From sequence record PV660448: 64,000 nt of DNA; one strand, 5' to 3'. Of this stretch, positions 6,056 through 49,931 are shown piece after piece. The position numbers were made by a program, and so were the translations under genes. The notes beneath the pieces were generated by a model. That model was not told where the DNA came from and made no database searches. It saw only the letters and a list, made by a program, of their open reading frames with translations. This stretch comes from Escherichia phage LF82-4. Every line of letters begins with the position of its first letter. The stretch's first letter is position 1.

Positions 6056-6199
6056 CTAGTTAAAGCATCCATACTTTGCTTGTAGTCCAATCATAATCCA
6101 TCCGATTATAAGAGTCGGAATCATTACTGGAGCCGTTAAGCTCCAGTAGATAGTCATGACAAGCATCAATAGTAAAAGTCCTATTGTTATTGCTTTCAT
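6056..6199 (-). CDS. small hydrophobic protein (47 aa), not in ORF track
   Basis: ATG overlaps stop of the SIS gene (ATGA); MKAITIGLLLLMLVMTIYWSL... two hydrophobic segments; fills gap 6015-6195. Confidence 0.35.
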   Translation of the reverse strand: MKAITIGLLLLMLVMTIYWSLTAPVMIPTLIIGWIMIGLQAKYGCFN

Positions 6200-15208: not shown

Positions 15209-16224
15209 TGTGTTGCCTCAATATAAAGTTCGTTAGAATATTTGACCAGCGCTTCTCTGTCTTCGTCTGAGATATCTGGAATCGCGTCAATATATTCTTT
15301 AATGATATCTTGAAGTGATTTAATCTCGATTTCCTGGTCGTCATCAGATTCAACACTGTTATCAACTTTAGAAACCATACGAAGAGAGTGAACTACTTTT
15401 TCAAGTTCAGATTCAAACTTAGTCAACTCTGAATCAATTTCTGATACTATAACACGTACGGCTAGATTAGTATAATCAGAATAATTAATTTTGCCTTTAA
15501 ACGGATAAGTGATTCGTCGATGCCATGTTGTTTCATTAGGAATAAATTCCATACGTTCAACATCAGTGTCAAATACCCAGAATCCACGTGGGTCGTTCTC
15601 GTCACCTGCAGTAAGGGTCCATGGTGTCCCAATATATTTGACGTTAGCAGCTTCAGAGATTGTGTGGAAGTGGCCAGACCAGACTTGTTTATAGGTCTTT
15701 AAGAAATCAGGTTCAAGCCCATGAGACTTCATTCCTTTATAGAAATAAAAGCCGTTCAGTTCCCAATGACCAACACAATACGCAGCAGAAGAAGTCTTGA
15801 TGTGCTCTAAGATTTCACCTGTATTTTCTTCACACATCCATGGAATTAAATCAATCAGACACCCATCGAAATCAACAGTCGTAGGTTTATCATAAATAAC
15901 AACATTTTTACGATGAGACAAAAGCTCTTGGGTTGTATTAGGGTATAAAGTTGTCTTATAAAAAAGGTCGTGGTTACCCAAAATAGTGTTAACGGTTATT
16001 CCAGCGTTTTCAGCCATATCAAATAATTCACGAGTAAACTCCATACAACGTTGTGTTGTGTGAGCTCGTACATCAAATACGTCCCCGTACTGTATCCATG
16101 TTGTTATTCCATTTTTAACAGAATAATCCACCATTTGTTTGAATCCATGACGTTGGATGTTTTGAATCCACTCATCATCCTTTTTTACACCTAAGTGCAA
16201 ATCGCCTACGTTAAGAATTTTCAT
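15205..16224 (-). CDS. 47: recombination nuclease subunit (Mre11/SbcD-like)
   Basis: 339 aa from ATG at 16224 (MKILNVGDLHLG...), AAGGTG RBS; phosphoesterase motifs GDLH, GNHD, GHWH. Confidence 0.93.
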   Translation of the reverse strand: MKILNVGDLHLGVKKDDEWIQNIQRHGFKQMVDYSVKNGITTWIQYGDVFDVRAHTTQRCMEFTRELFDMAENAGITVNTILGNHDLFYKTTLYPNTTQELLSHRKNVVIYDKPTTVDFDGCLIDLIPWMCEENTGEILEHIKTSSAAYCVGHWELNGFYFYKGMKSHGLEPDFLKTYKQVWSGHFHTISEAANVKYIGTPWTLTAGDENDPRGFWVFDTDVERMEFIPNETTWHRRITYPFKGKINYSDYTNLAVRVIVSEIDSELTKFESELEKVVHSLRMVSKVDNSVESDDDQEIEIKSLQDIIKEYIDAIPDISDEDREALVKYSNELYIEATQ

Positions 16225-17038
16225 ATTGCACCTTAAATTTACCATAAATTATACTGTGATAACTTAAATCAGGAAAACCTTCTGCGACGGCTAAAGGTCT
16301 AAACTTCTTAGGACTTATTCTACCACATTTTACCCAAAGAGCATATAGTGCTTCATAATATTCAAATAATGGTCCTTTACGAGCTTCAGAAACAGCTTTA
16401 CGCACTTTGTCCTTTATTGACGGGTCTAAATTTCTAAGGGTTTCACTAATTTTGTTTCGATGGGTTTCATTAATAAGATTTCCTTTAAGCCAGCCTTCGG
16501 GTTCAGTCCCTGGGACAAACATTTTCTTTTCTTTGCCATTATTATACCATTTGCGGCCTTTATTGTGACTAGAGGCTTTATATTCAGGAGAACGACCTTT
16601 TACATTACCTTCAGGTATATAAGGTAGAAAACTTTGTTCTAACGTTTCAGGGTTGTATGAGTGTATATGGCCTTTACCATTATGTGAGCCGTACAATGGG
16701 TGCTCTTCTTTTGGAAGTGATAATCCGAAAAATCCTTTAGGAGCAGCAATTGCTTTATTCATATACATCGGGTTATTGGCAGCATCCACCTTTAGTTGGA
16801 GTAAACGTTCAGCTTTTGTCGCTTCTTCTCTCGTGGCGTGTTCACTTACAATACATGAATCAAAAAGGTGTGGATTCATTTTTAGTTCAGAATTGTAAAT
16901 TTCCTTATATGCTTTTGATAAAACCGTTCCGTGATATCCAGCTTTATGCTTTGCAATACTTGTAGAACCTATATAAAACGGTGGAAGTTTGTCACCATCA
17001 TAAATCGTAAAATATACTATGTACATGTTATTCTCCAT
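16211..17038 (-). CDS. GIY-YIG homing endonuclease (Seg-like), free-standing
   Basis: 275 aa; GIY-YIG variant YIVYF...FYIGST, conserved R/E/N, NUMOD3-like HNKGRKWYNNG repeat; 3' end overlaps gene 47 start by 14 nt; locus where T4 has alpha-gt. Confidence 0.8.
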   Translation of the reverse strand: MENNMYIVYFTIYDGDKLPPFYIGSTSIAKHKAGYHGTVLSKAYKEIYNSELKMNPHLFDSCIVSEHATREEATKAERLLQLKVDAANNPMYMNKAIAAPKGFFGLSLPKEEHPLYGSHNGKGHIHSYNPETLEQSFLPYIPEGNVKGRSPEYKASSHNKGRKWYNNGKEKKMFVPGTEPEGWLKGNLINETHRNKISETLRNLDPSIKDKVRKAVSEARKGPLFEYYEALYALWVKCGRISPKKFRPLAVAEGFPDLSYHSIIYGKFKVQYENS

Positions 17039-17053
17039 TTTGTATAGAAATTA

Positions 17054-17082
17054 CTATATCATAGTTTATACTGTTTGTAAAC
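17054..17082 (-). promoter_or_regulatory. early-type promoter (GTTTAC -35, TATAGT-like -10) just upstream of the homing endonuclease gene
   Basis: minus strand GTTTAC...GATATAGT, ending 8-15 nt before ATG at 17038; no obvious RBS in the resulting leader. Confidence 0.35.
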
Positions 17083-17096
17083 CCTAGAAACGGAAA

Positions 17097-17116
17097 AGGA
17101 ACTCCGAAGAGTTCCT
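17097..17116 (-). terminator. hairpin with UUCG loop followed by U-rich tract
   Basis: minus strand AGGAACUC-UUCG-GAGUUCCU then UUUCC. Confidence 0.4.
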
Positions 17117-17288
17117 ATCCACATAGTACACCGTACAGAGGCTCATTTGAACTTTTAAATCGAATGGGCTTGTACGTAATAGTTCCTTCGGCTTTAGCTT
17201 TATCATAAGACTCTTTAAAACGTCTCATTCTTTCTGCTTTGCCTTTACGGATTTTATCGAAATTTTCAGAAGTCGGGATGTTCGTCAT
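17115..17288 (-). CDS. small hypothetical protein (57 aa), not in ORF track
   Basis: ATG at 17288 with GAGAGGTG RBS; MTNIPTSENFDKIRKGKAERMRRF...; fills 290-nt gap. Confidence 0.3.
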   Translation of the reverse strand: MTNIPTSENFDKIRKGKAERMRRFKESYDKAKAEGTITYKPIRFKSSNEPLYGVLCG

Positions 17289-33336: not shown

Positions 33337-33806
33337 TTAGCCTTATATTCAAGAGTAGGACAGACTTTTTCTTTATGAGCTTTAAGGTATTCACCTATTA
33401 ATGATTTCTTACGTTCAATAGGCTCAAGTCCATTTTTAATTCGTTCTTGGTTTTGTGCAATGAGCTCAATTTCTTTATAATATTTTCTGTCGTTATATTT
33501 GTCTAACAACCAAGACGGACCAATTACCAACCCGGTAGCAATAAAAGCCATGACTGCTACAATTAAAATGCCTACACCAATTGAGGCTGGAACTAATGTC
33601 CATAGACTGCTAAAAACAAAGAATTTAGTTAAAATTTCCTGGCCAATGATTGTGACTGCTGCTAAAATCGCAAATCCAATAATTGAAGCAGCCAATACCG
33701 GGATTAACGTTTTCCAAAAATAAGCACACAACGTTTTAGGACGATTCCATGTACTATTGAATGCAGCATAAATTTTATAGTGCCAAGAGTTTTCATTGAT
33801 AATCAT
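33333..33806 (-). CDS. polytopic membrane protein (157 aa)
   Basis: three hydrophobic helices. Confidence 0.55.
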   Translation of the reverse strand: MIINENSWHYKIYAAFNSTWNRPKTLCAYFWKTLIPVLAASIIGFAILAAVTIIGQEILTKFFVFSSLWTLVPASIGVGILIVAVMAFIATGLVIGPSWLLDKYNDRKYYKEIELIAQNQERIKNGLEPIERKKSLIGEYLKAHKEKVCPTLEYKAK

Positions 33807-33815
33807 AATAATTCC

Positions 33816-34352
33816 TTATTTCAAAGTCGGGATAATAGAATCAAGATAAGCTTTAAGAGCAACTGCTTCGTCTTTGGTAAACGTAGTAATATGTGAACGT
33901 AAATCATCAATTTGACGAATAGTTACGACATCACCATCTTCATAAGAATTCCGTACATCCAACGTCGTGGTATAGTTTAGAGCTACCGGATTAATAATAA
34001 AAGCACCACGTCCTTTACCCCATTGAAGTTTAGCCTTTTCGGGTGTTTCAGGTGTTTCAGAATTCAAGAATTCTTTAACCTTATCAACGAATGTTTTCCA
34101 ATTATCAATAGAAAGACACATATCTTCAGTTTCGATATTAGCACCACGTTCCCCACGATAAAAACGAACTTGTAGCTCATTGCCAATACTAGTTACGCTA
34201 TTAAATCCTGAAGGAGCATAAGATAAAATCTCTTCCAATTCCATAGGAAGAATAGTAATACTATCATCTTCTTGAGTGAAAAGATAGGTATTACCGAGTT
34301 TTTCGATAGTCAAGTCACCGAACATTTCAGTTGTTTCAATTACAGTTTTCAT
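33816..34352 (-). CDS. hypothetical protein (178 aa)
   Basis: ATG at 34352; track start 34364 is TTG. Confidence 0.55.
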   Translation of the reverse strand: MKTVIETTEMFGDLTIEKLGNTYLFTQEDDSITILPMELEEILSYAPSGFNSVTSIGNELQVRFYRGERGANIETEDMCLSIDNWKTFVDKVKEFLNSETPETPEKAKLQWGKGRGAFIINPVALNYTTTLDVRNSYEDGDVVTIRQIDDLRSHITTFTKDEAVALKAYLDSIIPTLK

Positions 34353-34353
34353 A

Positions 34354-34533
34354 TTATTCACCAATTAAAGTTTCAACAAAATTCACCAAATCATTCTGAC
34401 GAGCATCAACTTGCTTTTCATAGAAGTCTCCGCTATCATTTACTGCGTGATAAGCTACATCATTTAAATCAGTATCGGCTTCACGCAAGTCATGGATAAG
34501 GTCCATCAATTTATTAGCTTGTTCACGGGTCAT
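34354..34533 (-). CDS. small protein (59 aa), not in ORF track; paralogue of 34912-35091
   Basis: MTREQANKLMDLIHDL...; stop overlaps next ATG; N-terminus similar to MTRKEKISKLMFLIEEY of the other small gene. Confidence 0.4.
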   Translation of the reverse strand: MTREQANKLMDLIHDLREADTDLNDVAYHAVNDSGDFYEKQVDARQNDLVNFVETLIGE

Positions 34534-34640
34534 TTTACCATACTCGTTTCAATAAGATTCACTATGCCGTTTACCATGTTATAAGTAAACATCGGATAAT
34601 TGTATTGTACTACAACATAAGCGATAAGCAAAAGTTTCAT
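34530..34640 (-). CDS. hydrophobic peptide (36 aa), not in ORF track
   Basis: ATG at 34640 with GGAG RBS; TGA overlaps downstream ATG. Confidence 0.25.
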   Translation of the reverse strand: MKLLLIAYVVVQYNYPMFTYNMVNGIVNLIETSMVK

Positions 34641-34659
34641 TTTGTTCTCCGTTCGTTTT

Positions 34660-34698
34660 GGTAGGACTACTATAACATAGTCCTACCAAGATGTAAAC
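34660..34698 (-). promoter_or_regulatory. promoter-early stem-loop, family taggactactataacatagtcct
   Basis: GTTTAC -35; 9-bp inverted repeat GTAGGACTA/TAGTCCTAC around TATAGT-like -10. Confidence 0.5.
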
Positions 34699-34931
34699 TA
34701 CCGATTGTGTTTTAAATGTTGATAAAGTTCTTCAACTTGTTTAGGGTCCAAAACAATTAGGTCATTTTCTTGGCGAAGATAAAGCCATCCCTTATCCCCA
34801 GGACCATTTTTACAAAACATCGCCACCATATCATCATCTTCAGCGCTTTCAGGTAAAAGTTCAAGCACACCGTCTTCAGATTTTCCAGTATAATCGTAAA
34901 GCATAATATCCTCACATAATCTCGTTAACAT
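34698..34931 (-). CDS. hypothetical protein (77 aa)
   Basis: track ORF. Confidence 0.5.
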   Translation of the reverse strand: MLTRLCEDIMLYDYTGKSEDGVLELLPESAEDDDMVAMFCKNGPGDKGWLYLRQENDLIVLDPKQVEELYQHLKHNR

Positions 34932-35091
34932 ACATTTGCAATTCGGTGTGAGCGTCGGCCATCTTTTTCATAGCTCTGTTAATGTCGATGTCTCCATCTT
35001 CGCAACCATGAGCATTTTCCCAATCAGATACCGCATTAGCGTACTCTTCAATCAAAAACATCAACTTAGAAATCTTTTCTTTACGTGTCAT
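34912..35091 (-). CDS. small protein (59 aa), paralogue of 34354-34533
   Basis: ATG at 35091 directly after SD-bearing inverted-repeat arm. Confidence 0.45.
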   Translation of the reverse strand: MTRKEKISKLMFLIEEYANAVSDWENAHGCEDGDIDINRAMKKMADAHTELQMYVNEIM

Positions 35092-35095
35092 AACG

Positions 35096-35147
35096 TTCTC
35101 CTCTAGTAAGTAAGGTCTACTATAACACAACCTGAGGAGAAGTAAAC
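35096..35147 (-). promoter_or_regulatory. promoter-early stem-loop with SD in 3' arm (8-bp inverted repeat TTCTCCTC/GAGGAGAA flanking TATAGT)
   Basis: minus strand GTTTAC TTCTCCTCAGGTTGTGT TATAGT ...CTAGAGGAGAACGTT ATG. Confidence 0.55.
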
Positions 35148-35155
35148 TGCTAAAT

Positions 35156-35186
35156 GCAAAAAAGCCCCAACCTTTCGGAAGGGGCT
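35156..35186 (-). terminator. intrinsic terminator, copy 1 of 3 identical hairpins
   Basis: minus strand AGCCCCUUCCGAAAGGUUGGGGCU followed by UUUUUUG; 5 nt after stop of 35191-35748. Confidence 0.6.
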
Positions 35187-35190
35187 TTGA

Positions 35191-35748
35191 TTAGTTTTTG
35201 TAATATCGTAAAGGGTTGATATGGAATGAAAGCATTGCGCGTGGAATAGGACGTCTCAAAAGACTCTTAAGTTTCCAACCACAGTAAACACGCAGATAAA
35301 ATGTAATACCACCAACCTTAAGATAAGGTATAGCAGCGAATAATCCCCATGCAGACTCGTTCCAAACTAAAAGATATCCATGATGTGCTGGGTCAGGAGA
35401 TCCTGATTTAGTTTCGGCGTTGCCTTTATAGTGCCATTTTGATGAAGCTTCGCGACCTAAAACATGATACGAAAAATTATATGCTTTGTTGCGCCATAAC
35501 CAAGCTACGCGTTGAGCATATTTACCTATAACAGGAATTTTACGTATTTTAGACCAACGTTCAACATGGCCACGGTCACCATCGATAGGATTATCGTAAG
35601 TCATCATCCAGTCAAAGCCATAAGGTAGTTTACCGGTTTTTTCACTATGGAATGGAACTACAAATGGTGCTAGAATAATTGCTAAAATCGCTGCGATCCA
35701 ATCTATAGGAACAAGAACAACCCAACTTACATATTTTAAAAATTTCAT
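35191..35748 (-). CDS. membrane-anchored protein (185 aa), late-promoter driven
   Basis: N-terminal TM helix; TATAAATA late promoter 25 nt upstream; AGAGAGGA RBS. Confidence 0.6.
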   Translation of the reverse strand: MKFLKYVSWVVLVPIDWIAAILAIILAPFVVPFHSEKTGKLPYGFDWMMTYDNPIDGDRGHVERWSKIRKIPVIGKYAQRVAWLWRNKAYNFSYHVLGREASSKWHYKGNAETKSGSPDPAHHGYLLVWNESAWGLFAAIPYLKVGGITFYLRVYCGWKLKSLLRRPIPRAMLSFHINPLRYYKN

Positions 35749-35772
35749 ATATCCTCTCTTAGTTTACAAGGA

Positions 35773-35780
35773 TATTTATA
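35773..35780 (-). promoter_or_regulatory. late promoter TATAAATA
   Basis: exact T4 late consensus on minus strand, 25 nt upstream of ATG at 35748. Confidence 0.6.
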
Positions 35781-35809
35781 CAAAAAGCCCCAACCTTTCG
35801 GAAGGGGCT
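35781..35809 (-). terminator. intrinsic terminator, copy 2 of 3 identical hairpins
   Basis: same 24-bp hairpin plus U-tract, 7 nt after rI stop. Confidence 0.6.
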
Positions 35810-36375: not shown

Positions 36376-36952
36376 ACAACCCTGTCAAATCATTCCAATG
36401 CTTCCGGCATAATGACACATATCTATCGGTATCACCAATTTCAATTTGACTGCCATCTGTAATTGGAAGTCCGTCTTCCGTGACTCTAGCTACCATTGTG
36501 GCCTTTTTACCACAATGACAGACACCTTTAAGTTCAACAAGCTTATCGGCAATAGCCATTAATGCTTGAGAACCTTCAAATAGATTACCTTTAAAATCTG
36601 TTCGTAGTCCATATGCCATTACCGGCACATTGTATACGTCAACAATACGACTAAGTTGATACACCTTTTCAGTAGTTAAGAACTGAGCTTCGTCAACAAA
36701 TACGCAGTGAATATCCTTTTGTGCTGCAGCCCATTTATAGAATTCAAAGATATCCATGTCTTTTGTAATTATATTGGCATCCTGACGAATACCAATACGA
36801 GAGACTATTTCACCTTTTGAATTACGAGTATCAATAGCCGGTTTAAGAACTAATACACCCATGCCACGTTCTTTATAGTTATGTGCGGCAGTAAGTAATG
36901 AAGCAGACTTACCAGCGTTCATAGCGGCATAGGTAAAAATTAAACTAGCCAT
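36371..36952 (-). CDS. tk: thymidine kinase
   Basis: 193 aa; P-loop NAGKSASLL, C-terminal Zn motif CHCG...C; T4 synteny. Confidence 0.93.
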   Translation of the reverse strand: MASLIFTYAAMNAGKSASLLTAAHNYKERGMGVLVLKPAIDTRNSKGEIVSRIGIRQDANIITKDMDIFEFYKWAAAQKDIHCVFVDEAQFLTTEKVYQLSRIVDVYNVPVMAYGLRTDFKGNLFEGSQALMAIADKLVELKGVCHCGKKATMVARVTEDGLPITDGSQIEIGDTDRYVSLCRKHWNDLTGLL

Positions 36953-37142
36953 AAGAGTCCTTAGTTAAATTTTCTAAATATGTTTCTAAATCATTTTCAG
37001 CTTTATTGATAGATTTTACTAATTCGTAGTATGTTTCGGCATCTCCATATTCAGAAGATATTTCAAAAGACAAATCCTTTTCTAAACTAATAATTTCACC
37101 AACTAAAAATAATATTTCGTTCTTTTGTTCGCGAGTAATCAT
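36945..37142 (-). CDS. hypothetical protein (tk.x-like)
   Basis: 65 aa. Confidence 0.5.
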   Translation of the reverse strand: MITREQKNEILFLVGEIISLEKDLSFEISSEYGDAETYYELVKSINKAENDLETYLENLTKDSYG

Positions 37143-37330
37143 AATGAATTTATATAATCAATAAGTTCTTGCTCTTTATCGTCAAAATCTTTACACAGTT
37201 CTTCGTATTCGTCAGTATTAAAAGGACCGCATTCATTACAAACTTTTTCCAATTCGCTATTTTTATCCATAACTTCGTGGATAAGAGAAAAGAGTTTGTC
37301 TTTTTGTTCTTTACTTAAACTCATAACCAT
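37139..37330 (-). CDS. hypothetical protein (tk.x-like)
   Basis: 63 aa; N-terminal region similar to previous ORF (possible duplication). Confidence 0.5.
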   Translation of the reverse strand: MVMSLSKEQKDKLFSLIHEVMDKNSELEKVCNECGPFNTDEYEELCKDFDDKEQELIDYINSL

Positions 37331-49720: not shown

Positions 49721-49766
49721 TTTGTTTTCCTCTTGATTTGATGTGATTACTATAACATAAACTTAC

Positions 49767-49931
49767 TTAGATGTAAACTATTTCAACATCACCTTTAGCT
49801 GCTTTATAACCTTCGGCCCAAGATACAACAGAGTTTTTATCTGAGGATTCAAATTCAGGCATTGGACTTTCACCAATATTCACACAGTATGTTTCTTCAT
49901 TTTCATCGAACCAAATAATTAAAGTAGTCAT
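49767..49931 (-). CDS. small acidic protein (54 aa), not in ORF track
   Basis: ATG at 49931 with GGAG RBS; fills 280-nt gap. Confidence 0.35.
   Translation of the reverse strand: MTTLIIWFDENEETYCVNIGESPMPEFESSDKNSVVSWAEGYKAAKGDVEIVYI

Follow-up and report, generated by a model that had tools for sequence, protein, structure and literature searches.

Short early genes from the variable parts of a Mosigvirus genome, probably including diverged DUF7438 paralogues

The short minus-strand ORFs described here are very probably ordinary, already catalogued small early genes lying in variable regions of Mosigvirus, the two 59-aa genes among them being diverged paralogues of the DUF7438/phrog_653 family. 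The DNA analysed (64,000 nts of Escherichia phage LF82-4, record PV660448; hereafter the window) belongs to a Mosigvirus, an RB69-type relative of T4. It follows the T4-like gene order, with the DNA polymerase, genes 46/47, the late sigma factor, the anaerobic ribonucleotide reductase and the nrdC block, and this order continues through rI, tk, vs and regB onwards. Over 33800-35800 it shares 100% identity with Escherichia phage LF82-1 and with ten sibling isolates, and about 90% with other Mosigvirus members; elsewhere the window has indels relative to LF82-1, so the identity is not window-wide. The Mosigvirus and T4-like relatives used below were taken individually from GenBank phage records; a search for related loci in viral contigs returned a single locus, and a word-indexed homologue search returned close orthologues only.

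Coding status and public annotation of the short ORFs

Six ORFs had been put forward as small genes, and all six are found on the minus strand, each with an ATG start: gene A (34354-34533, 59 aa), gene B (34530-34640, 36 aa), gene D (34912-35091, 59 aa) and three ORFs elsewhere in the window, of 47 aa (6056-6199), 57 aa (17115-17288) and 54 aa (49767-49931). The claim that each has a ribosome binding site is borne out to the extent that a Shine-Dalgarno-like sequence or an ATGA stop/start overlap is seen for every one of them. Between the two 59-aa genes, on the same strand, lies gene C (34698-34904), an annotated CDS for an acidic 68-aa protein (Pfam DUF7189, 98.3 bits; phrog_4844). Over its six frames the window contains 113 ATG-started ORFs of 36-59 aa compared to 129±11 in shuffled sequence; the presence of an ORF alone is thus no proof of coding, and independent evidence is needed.

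Such evidence comes from sequence conservation and purifying selection, from family matches and from published proteomics of T4, which support the view that the six ORFs are genuine small protein-coding genes. Genes A, B, C and D are intact in seven other Mosigvirus genomes, with constant lengths except for gene C, which has 69 aa in one relative and is a divergent 71 aa in another. The pooled Nei-Gojobori dN/dS is 0.26 for gene A, 0.25 for gene B, 0.18 for gene C and 0.03 for gene D; 25 of the 28 variable sites in gene D are at third codon positions, and the amino-acid changes in gene A among relatives cluster in the turn of its predicted hairpin. PHROG matches (E between 1e-20 and 8e-36) exist for every named ORF, and a Pfam scan of seven proteins, the six named ORFs and gene C, put four of them above threshold.

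Three of the ORFs are direct orthologues of T4 genes. The hydrophobic gene B product is 65% identical to T4 MobD.2 (phrog_3515, E 1e-20), the basic 57-aa protein is 76% identical to T4 a-gt.2 (Pfam DUF5486, 97.3 bits), and the strongly hydrophobic 47-aa protein, probably a membrane protein (phrog_3610, E 5.7e-26; matches in 314 phage records), is 52% identical to a 49-aa T4 ORF between imm and gene 42. The start of the 47-aa gene overlaps the stop of a sugar-isomerase gene (ATGA), whereas its T4 counterpart follows imm. The acidic 54-aa protein (phrog_5461, E 8e-36) is conserved at 80% identity or more in 275 phage records, T2 included.

The original prediction regarded these genes as missed, a claim that does not hold for the public records. 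LF82-1, whose GenBank record (PV648359) matches the window without a difference over the 34-kb cluster, has an annotated CDS for each of the six (XUL00405 for gene A), and they are annotated in most relatives too, the RB69-type records naming the two 59-aa genes "Tk.1" and "MobD.2a". It was the 60-aa cut-off in the first stage of the analysis, and no lack of knowledge, that produced the gap. Reference records do disagree on the very shortest genes, MobD.2 and the 49-aa ORF beside imm. Gene B is a CDS in LF82-1 and is absent from the annotation of Shf125875, which follows RB69. RefSeq NC_000866 gives no CDS for the T4 homologue of the 47-aa gene, yet UniProt lists it; the idea that the T4 49-aa ORF is a new gene was rejected, as an entry for it exists there ("5.6 kDa protein in Gp42-imm intergenic region").

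Proteomics of infected cells, the check suggested in the original prediction, in effect exists for the T4 relatives of these genes (PMC9697503). That T4 time course places MobD.3 and MobD.4 in the early class for both RNA and protein, Tk.1 and Tk.2 in early RNA and middle protein, and a-gt.2 in early RNA and late protein, and it gives no protein class for MobD.2, MobD.2a or MobD.5 (PMC9697503 supplement). The transcript from the mobD.5 promoter is a known early T4 transcript (PMC1702504).

It is quite improbable that some of the shortest ORFs, and gene B in particular, are untranslated, their conserved sequence reflecting instead an RNA or regulatory role such as that of a translational-coupling leader to gene A. 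Gene B offers few substitutions to judge from, but over eight Mosigvirus sequences, the window included, none of these is at a second codon position (variable sites 5/0/5, dN/dS 0.25). Although ORFs this short arise by chance, and gene B is unannotated in Shf125875 and RB69-style records, it has a dedicated PHROG family, a good GGAG Shine-Dalgarno sequence six bases 5′ of the ATG and, at 65% amino-acid identity to T4 MobD.2, an invariant QYNYPMFTYN core. Shotgun proteomics routinely misses small hydrophobic peptides, which also counts against an untranslated gene B. A further point in favour of such a reading is that T4 MobD.2 lacks a protein class in the T4 proteome study (PMC9697503).

Relationship of the two 59-aa genes within the DUF7438 family

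Genes A and D very probably share a common ancestor, to judge from their sequences. Both are well over the curated gathering cut-off of Pfam DUF7438 (PF24219; 25 bits, whole-protein score), with 56.7 bits for A and 61.0 bits for D, both match phrog_653 and phrog_4859, and both are predicted to fold into the same two-helix hairpin, in agreement with the proposal that they are paralogues. The Pfam matches cover the full length of the model (A residues 1-56 on model positions 1-57; D residues 4-58 on positions 3-57), and both proteins show the DUF7438 pattern of a stand-alone single domain of about 57-65 aa. The description of A and D as a pair proved incomplete, however, as they are half of a four-member family in the window. 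The other two members lie at 36945-37324 on the same strand: a tk.1-like gene (36945-37142, 65 aa; 54.2 bits; phrog_653, E 8e-22), which was also recovered by our own HMM, and a tk.2-like gene (37139-37324, 61 aa; 69.4 bits; phrog_653, E 4e-24). T4 Tk.1, Tk.2, MobD.3 and MobD.4 exceed the DUF7438 cut-off as well.

An HMM built from these four T4 proteins alone and run on 1259 six-frame segments of the window picked exactly four segments, namely the tk.1-like and tk.2-like genes (E about 1e-27), gene A (E 1.9e-10) and gene D (E 0.003), so that A and D rank third and fourth of 1259 and the next match has E = 1. When the family profile was compared with 1.84 billion representative proteins, only 15 clusters were found at E ≤0.001, all of them of about 60 aa or shorter fragments, except for one 586-aa repeat protein judged to be a false positive. 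By this comparison, the DUF7438 profile is evidently not promiscuous. A search with a distant DUF7438 member found 721 phage records, every one of them from phages of Enterobacteriaceae hosts, and the window members fit the occurrence of DUF7438 in T4-like (Tevenvirinae) phages.

Direct comparisons of A with D are weak, and their homology therefore rests on family profiles and intermediates. A BLASTP search of A against D gave no alignment and their global identity is 28%; profile-profile comparison of the two orthologue sets gave a collinear but only weakly significant match (P = 0.0056, 29% identity, hhalign probability 6.6%). The N-terminus they had been said to share, MTREQANKLMDLI compared to MTRKEKISKLMFLI, is a real resemblance, but its alignment requires a shift of one residue.

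These weak direct comparisons, together with the proneness of helical proteins to spurious profile matches, are what could be said for a convergence of unrelated helical-hairpin peptides through shared heptad composition, with no common ancestry; we consider this quite unlikely. One curated Pfam model is matched over its whole length by both proteins, with scores more than double its cut-off, the intermediates Tk.1, Tk.2 and MobD.3 connect A with D, and generic coiled coils do not match the profile, given that only 15 clusters in 1.84 billion proteins do so. The two proteins also have in common their length, an N-terminal T-R/K-E motif and a genomic neighbourhood, in a lineage where duplication and recombination of copies can be demonstrated.

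Paralogy of A and D is in keeping with the history of the family in T4 and its relatives. The T4 members resemble A and D in size (about 60 aa), in matching the same profile, in their predicted acidic two-helix hairpin and in early expression, and their genes lie in the same neighbourhood, between nrdC.11/mobD.1 and rI as well as just beyond tk. In contrast to the T4 members, A and D fall into their own PHROG sub-clusters, phrog_4859 for A (E 1.8e-31) and phrog_2758 for D (E 5.5e-35). T4 further differs in having no orthologue of gene A, and in carrying only a frameshifted counterpart of gene D, MobD.2a, besides the intact Tk.1, Tk.2, MobD.3 and MobD.4. The N-terminal 23 residues of T4 mobD.2a (70% identical to D) and its C-terminal 19 residues (47%) are in different frames; hence, on sequence grounds, T4 mobD.2a is a decayed gene, of which gene D is evidently the intact, full-length counterpart. 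Tequatrovirus Sf22 has at least five copies of the family, including an intact 57-aa version of mobD.2a and an orthologue of gene A. A natural fusion that joins the N-terminal helix of Tk.2 to the C-terminal helix of Tk.1 is present in the protein library, along with several truncated variants. The differences between Sf22 and T4, the frameshifted MobD.2a and the fusion indicate that DUF7438 copies have been gained, lost, recombined and decayed.

Promoters, hairpins and PeSL-type cassettes

Genes A and D are served by T4-type early promoters which, with their stem-loops, resemble PeSL cassettes. PeSLs (promoter-early stem-loops) are found in T4-type phages on either side of variable genes, whose shuffling they have been proposed to mediate (Arbiol 2010, PMC2839356; Comeau 2014, PMC4122927), and their early promoter has the sigma-70-like consensus TTTACW-N17-TAYWAT (PMC4122927). 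Both promoters of the cluster, each with a TG extension and on the minus strand, fit this type: TTTACA-17-TATAGT (34669-34697) upstream of gene B and TTTACT-16-TATAGT (35119-35146) 5′ of gene D. Behind the cassettes there is a Shine-Dalgarno sequence (GGAG/GAGGAG) followed by an ATG.

According to the original prediction, a stem-loop promoter lies directly ahead of each of the two 59-aa genes, which is correct for gene D and only partly so for gene A. The latter is the second gene of a two-gene unit, coupled to gene B by an ATGA overlap between the stop of B and the start of A, and the promoter driving this unit lies upstream of gene B; in the T4 record U76612, -35 and -10 signals are annotated at the corresponding position before mobD.2. 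The promoter of gene D is annotated as a T4-like early promoter in SA79RD and occupies the same position as T4 "early promoter 57.9". Directly upstream of it is an intrinsic terminator hairpin (35161-35188, minus strand), AAAGCCCC...GGGGCUUU followed by UUUU, with a fold of -17.9 kcal/mol (z -4.0), which is annotated as a terminator in both SA79RD and T4. The stem-loop thus precedes the promoter before gene D, and from their sequences terminator and promoter together fit a PeSL-type cassette.

A perfect 12-bp inverted repeat at 34658-34689 on the minus strand is predicted to form an RNA hairpin (-21 kcal/mol, z -4.35), with most of the -10 box of the B-A promoter in its 8-nt loop. The hairpin is conserved between T4-type phages and Mosigvirus, with four compensatory pairs and 99% of cells paired, and the tolerance of G-U pairs on the transcript strand points to an RNA structure. 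As in PeSLs, there is a promoter with an adjacent stem-loop, a Shine-Dalgarno sequence and an ATG, in a hyperplastic region beside insertions and deletions. Unlike in PeSLs, the stem-loop at 34658-34697 encloses the -10 box instead of preceding the promoter and is without a U-tract. We also considered a long-range pairing, TTCTCCTC/GAGGAGAA (35096-35141), that would hide the ribosome binding site of gene D in read-through transcripts; this candidate was dropped, with a z of -0.97 against shuffles and one relative that breaks a pair.

The promoter-terminator cassette of gene D adjoins a 185-aa gene (DUF7338, 35191-35748). Shf125875 and SA79RD lack this gene, and the junction falls at the terminator stem, which is consistent with PeSL-mediated shuffling, and SA79RD carries extra ORFs between the two cassettes.

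Predicted fold and possible roles of the DUF7438 proteins

The AlphaFold2 models, each from an alignment of only four sequences, predict helices at residues 3-29 and 34-58 for gene A (pLDDT 88.7) and at residues 3-27 and 33-58 for gene D (pLDDT 90.4). The DUF7438 members are strongly acidic, with a pI of 4.2-5.0 and a net charge of -4 to -10.5 (pI 4.28 and charge -9 for the gene A product). Foldseek searches of the PDB with the hairpin returned Rop, CnrX and Aqs1, all at E >0.5 and generic for helical hairpins, while among viral models only uncharacterised proteins of T4-like phages were matched. The family profile compared with all PDB sequences found no related solved structure, the best match (E 0.02) being a chemoreceptor coiled coil. 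ColE1 Rop/Rom and DMS3 Aqs1 are small dimers of helical hairpins, with a fold and size like those predicted here for the DUF7438 proteins, which share with Rop an antiparallel two-helix hairpin of about 60 aa; Aqs1, made early in infection by its phage, blocks proteins of the host. Neither has significant sequence or Foldseek similarity to DUF7438, and Rop binds RNA and is plasmid-borne.

The likeness to Rop raises the question of whether the DUF7438 proteins could be dimeric four-helix bundles that bind pairs of RNA hairpins, possibly the promoter-associated stem-loops of the phage itself, which we regard as highly improbable. Rop is the best structural match of the hairpin (TM 0.87, rmsd 1.0 Å) and conserved RNA hairpins do adjoin the DUF7438 genes, but the match has a Foldseek E of 0.6 with 13-16% identity in the structural alignment, Pfam searched at E up to 1 gives DUF7438 only and no Rop family, and proteins with a net charge of -5 to -10 are unlikely to bind RNA.

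That gene A encodes a helicase loader, as stated in the GenBank records of LF82-1, Sf22 and RB3 and in the description of phrog_4859 (other records label it RB69 "Tk.1"), is extremely improbable, since Pfam at E up to 1 finds DUF7438 alone and no helicase-loader domain of the T4 gp59 or DnaC/DnaI type, NCBIfam returned nothing for this protein, the PDB-wide profile search found no helicase loader, its closest paralogues (phrog_653) are labelled "unknown function", and 59 aa with a net charge of -9 are hard to reconcile with single-stranded DNA binding. The gp59 helicase loader is a basic protein of 217 aa. From the sequence comparisons the label looks like a propagated annotation error, and we regard the RefSeq product name on T4 mobD.4 as a likewise unsupported propagated annotation. 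"Helicase loader" spreads through automated phage annotation and should not be trusted.

In the literature searched there was no mention of DUF7438 and no functional study of tk.1 or tk.2, and the few papers on mobD genes assign no function. A viable genome-reduced T4 has lost the nrdC.11-mobD.3 interval (PMC9825161), and the CRISPRi-ART guides examined for tk.1, tk.2, mobD.2, mobD.3, mobD.4 and a-gt.2 are labelled "Not Fit" (PMC11879866). Hence, the T4 relatives appear to be dispensable in the laboratory, and this dispensability, together with the turnover of copies, fits host-specific accessory roles.

One possible mechanism, which we put forward tentatively, is that DUF7438 hairpins would be made in the first minutes of infection and would pair with other hairpins into a four-helix bundle, and that this bundle may bind and block or redirect a protein of the host or of its defences, and not nucleic acid. 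Nucleic-acid binding is unlikely because of the acidic charge, and both the dimerisation and the protein target are suggested by size, charge and timing only, so that together they make a possible rather than a probable account. On this view, copies would have been gained and lost, and have decayed and recombined, as the phages adapted to different hosts.

A bolder extension, which is rather unlikely, is that the hairpins act as a combinatorial set, in which pairing with themselves or with each other would yield four-helix bundles that differ in surface, so that each would neutralise its own defence or regulatory protein of the host, with the copy number tuned by shuffling at the promoter/stem-loop cassettes.

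As the genes and families are already in public annotation and databases, and T4 relatives have been seen as proteins, the ORFs add little beyond housekeeping. In summary, however, their early expression, dispensability and copy turnover make the members of this multi-copy family of acidic 60-aa hairpins reasonable candidates for host-takeover and anti-defence screens, and if the combinatorial reading were true, the best-studied group of phages would possess an anti-defence family that can be expanded.

Promoter and terminator cassettes beside the small genes

We identified, by eye in the sequence, further cassettes of the terminator-plus-early-promoter or promoter-only kind at window positions 17040-17114 and 49721-49766 (GTTTACA...TGATATAGT and GTTTACA...TGTTATAGT, respectively), which directly adjoin the 57-aa and the 54-aa ORFs. 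Since cassettes also flank these two ORFs, the small genes of the original prediction would tend to be located at cassettes of these kinds, as judged from the sequence. The 57-aa ORF, which is a-gt.2-like, and gene 47 flank a 275-aa homing-endonuclease gene (16211-17038; phrog_10820, E 4e-75, and phrog_314). This gene is missing from the otherwise near-identical phage LF82-1, and its absence explains why the coordinates of LF82-1 and the window are offset by 821 bp.

Next to rI lies a 185-aa DUF7338 gene (35191-35748), which is present in the window and in some Mosigvirus genomes and is missing from Shf125875 and SA79RD. The junction is located at the terminator stem-loop, as expected if the gene was gained or lost via the cassette.

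A conserved hairpin upstream of the MobD.2-like gene

A 12-bp stem-loop surrounds the promoter -10 box upstream of the MobD.2-like gene (34658-34689), and is also found in T4 (L009) and Sf22 (L008), being common to T4-type and Mosigvirus phages. Four of its base pairs are changed compensatorily between the T4-type and the Mosigvirus phages, and its transcript strand tolerates G-U pairs. The stem-loop has no U-tract; it may act as a 3′-end stabiliser, a weak terminator or a processing site. In Escherichia phage FL18, at the site homologous to window 34670-34677, the 8-nt hairpin loop is exactly inverted (CTATAACA, compared to TGTTATAG in the window), which abolishes the coding-strand -10 box; this change looks like a palindrome-mediated loop inversion.

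Small genes in the T4 annotation

The window ORF at 6056-6199 has a homologue in T4, a conserved and strongly hydrophobic 49-aa ORF on the minus strand (NC_000866, 26227-26376; 8228-8377 of T4 locus L010), which is likely a membrane protein. It takes up all of the 'intergenic' space that separates imm from gene 42, with its start overlapping the stop codon of imm. The RefSeq record carries no CDS for it, but it is listed in UniProt as an uncharacterised 5.6 kDa protein.

Several product names in the T4 RefSeq (L005) and LF82-1 (L001) annotations appear to stem from mistaken gene symbols or from propagated errors. T4 mobD.4 is named 'molybdopterin-guanine dinucleotide biosynthesis protein MobD', T4 rI.-1 is named 'starvation-inducible transcriptional regulator' and, in LF82-1, the 59-aa gene at 34354 is named 'helicase loader'.

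Decay and probable recombination of DUF7438 genes

The 38-aa T4 mobD.2a (L005, 7997-8178) is what a frameshift has left of a full-length DUF7438 gene, whose counterpart is intact in phage Sf22 and in the window (34912-35091). Proteins P0023, P0029, P0030 and P0033 of the protein library include a natural fusion, in which the N-terminal helix of Tk.2 is joined to the C-terminal helix of Tk.1, and several truncated DUF7438 members. Sequencing errors are an alternative explanation in some cases; the fusion and the truncated members indicate that adjacent DUF7438 paralogues probably recombine with their neighbours and often decay.
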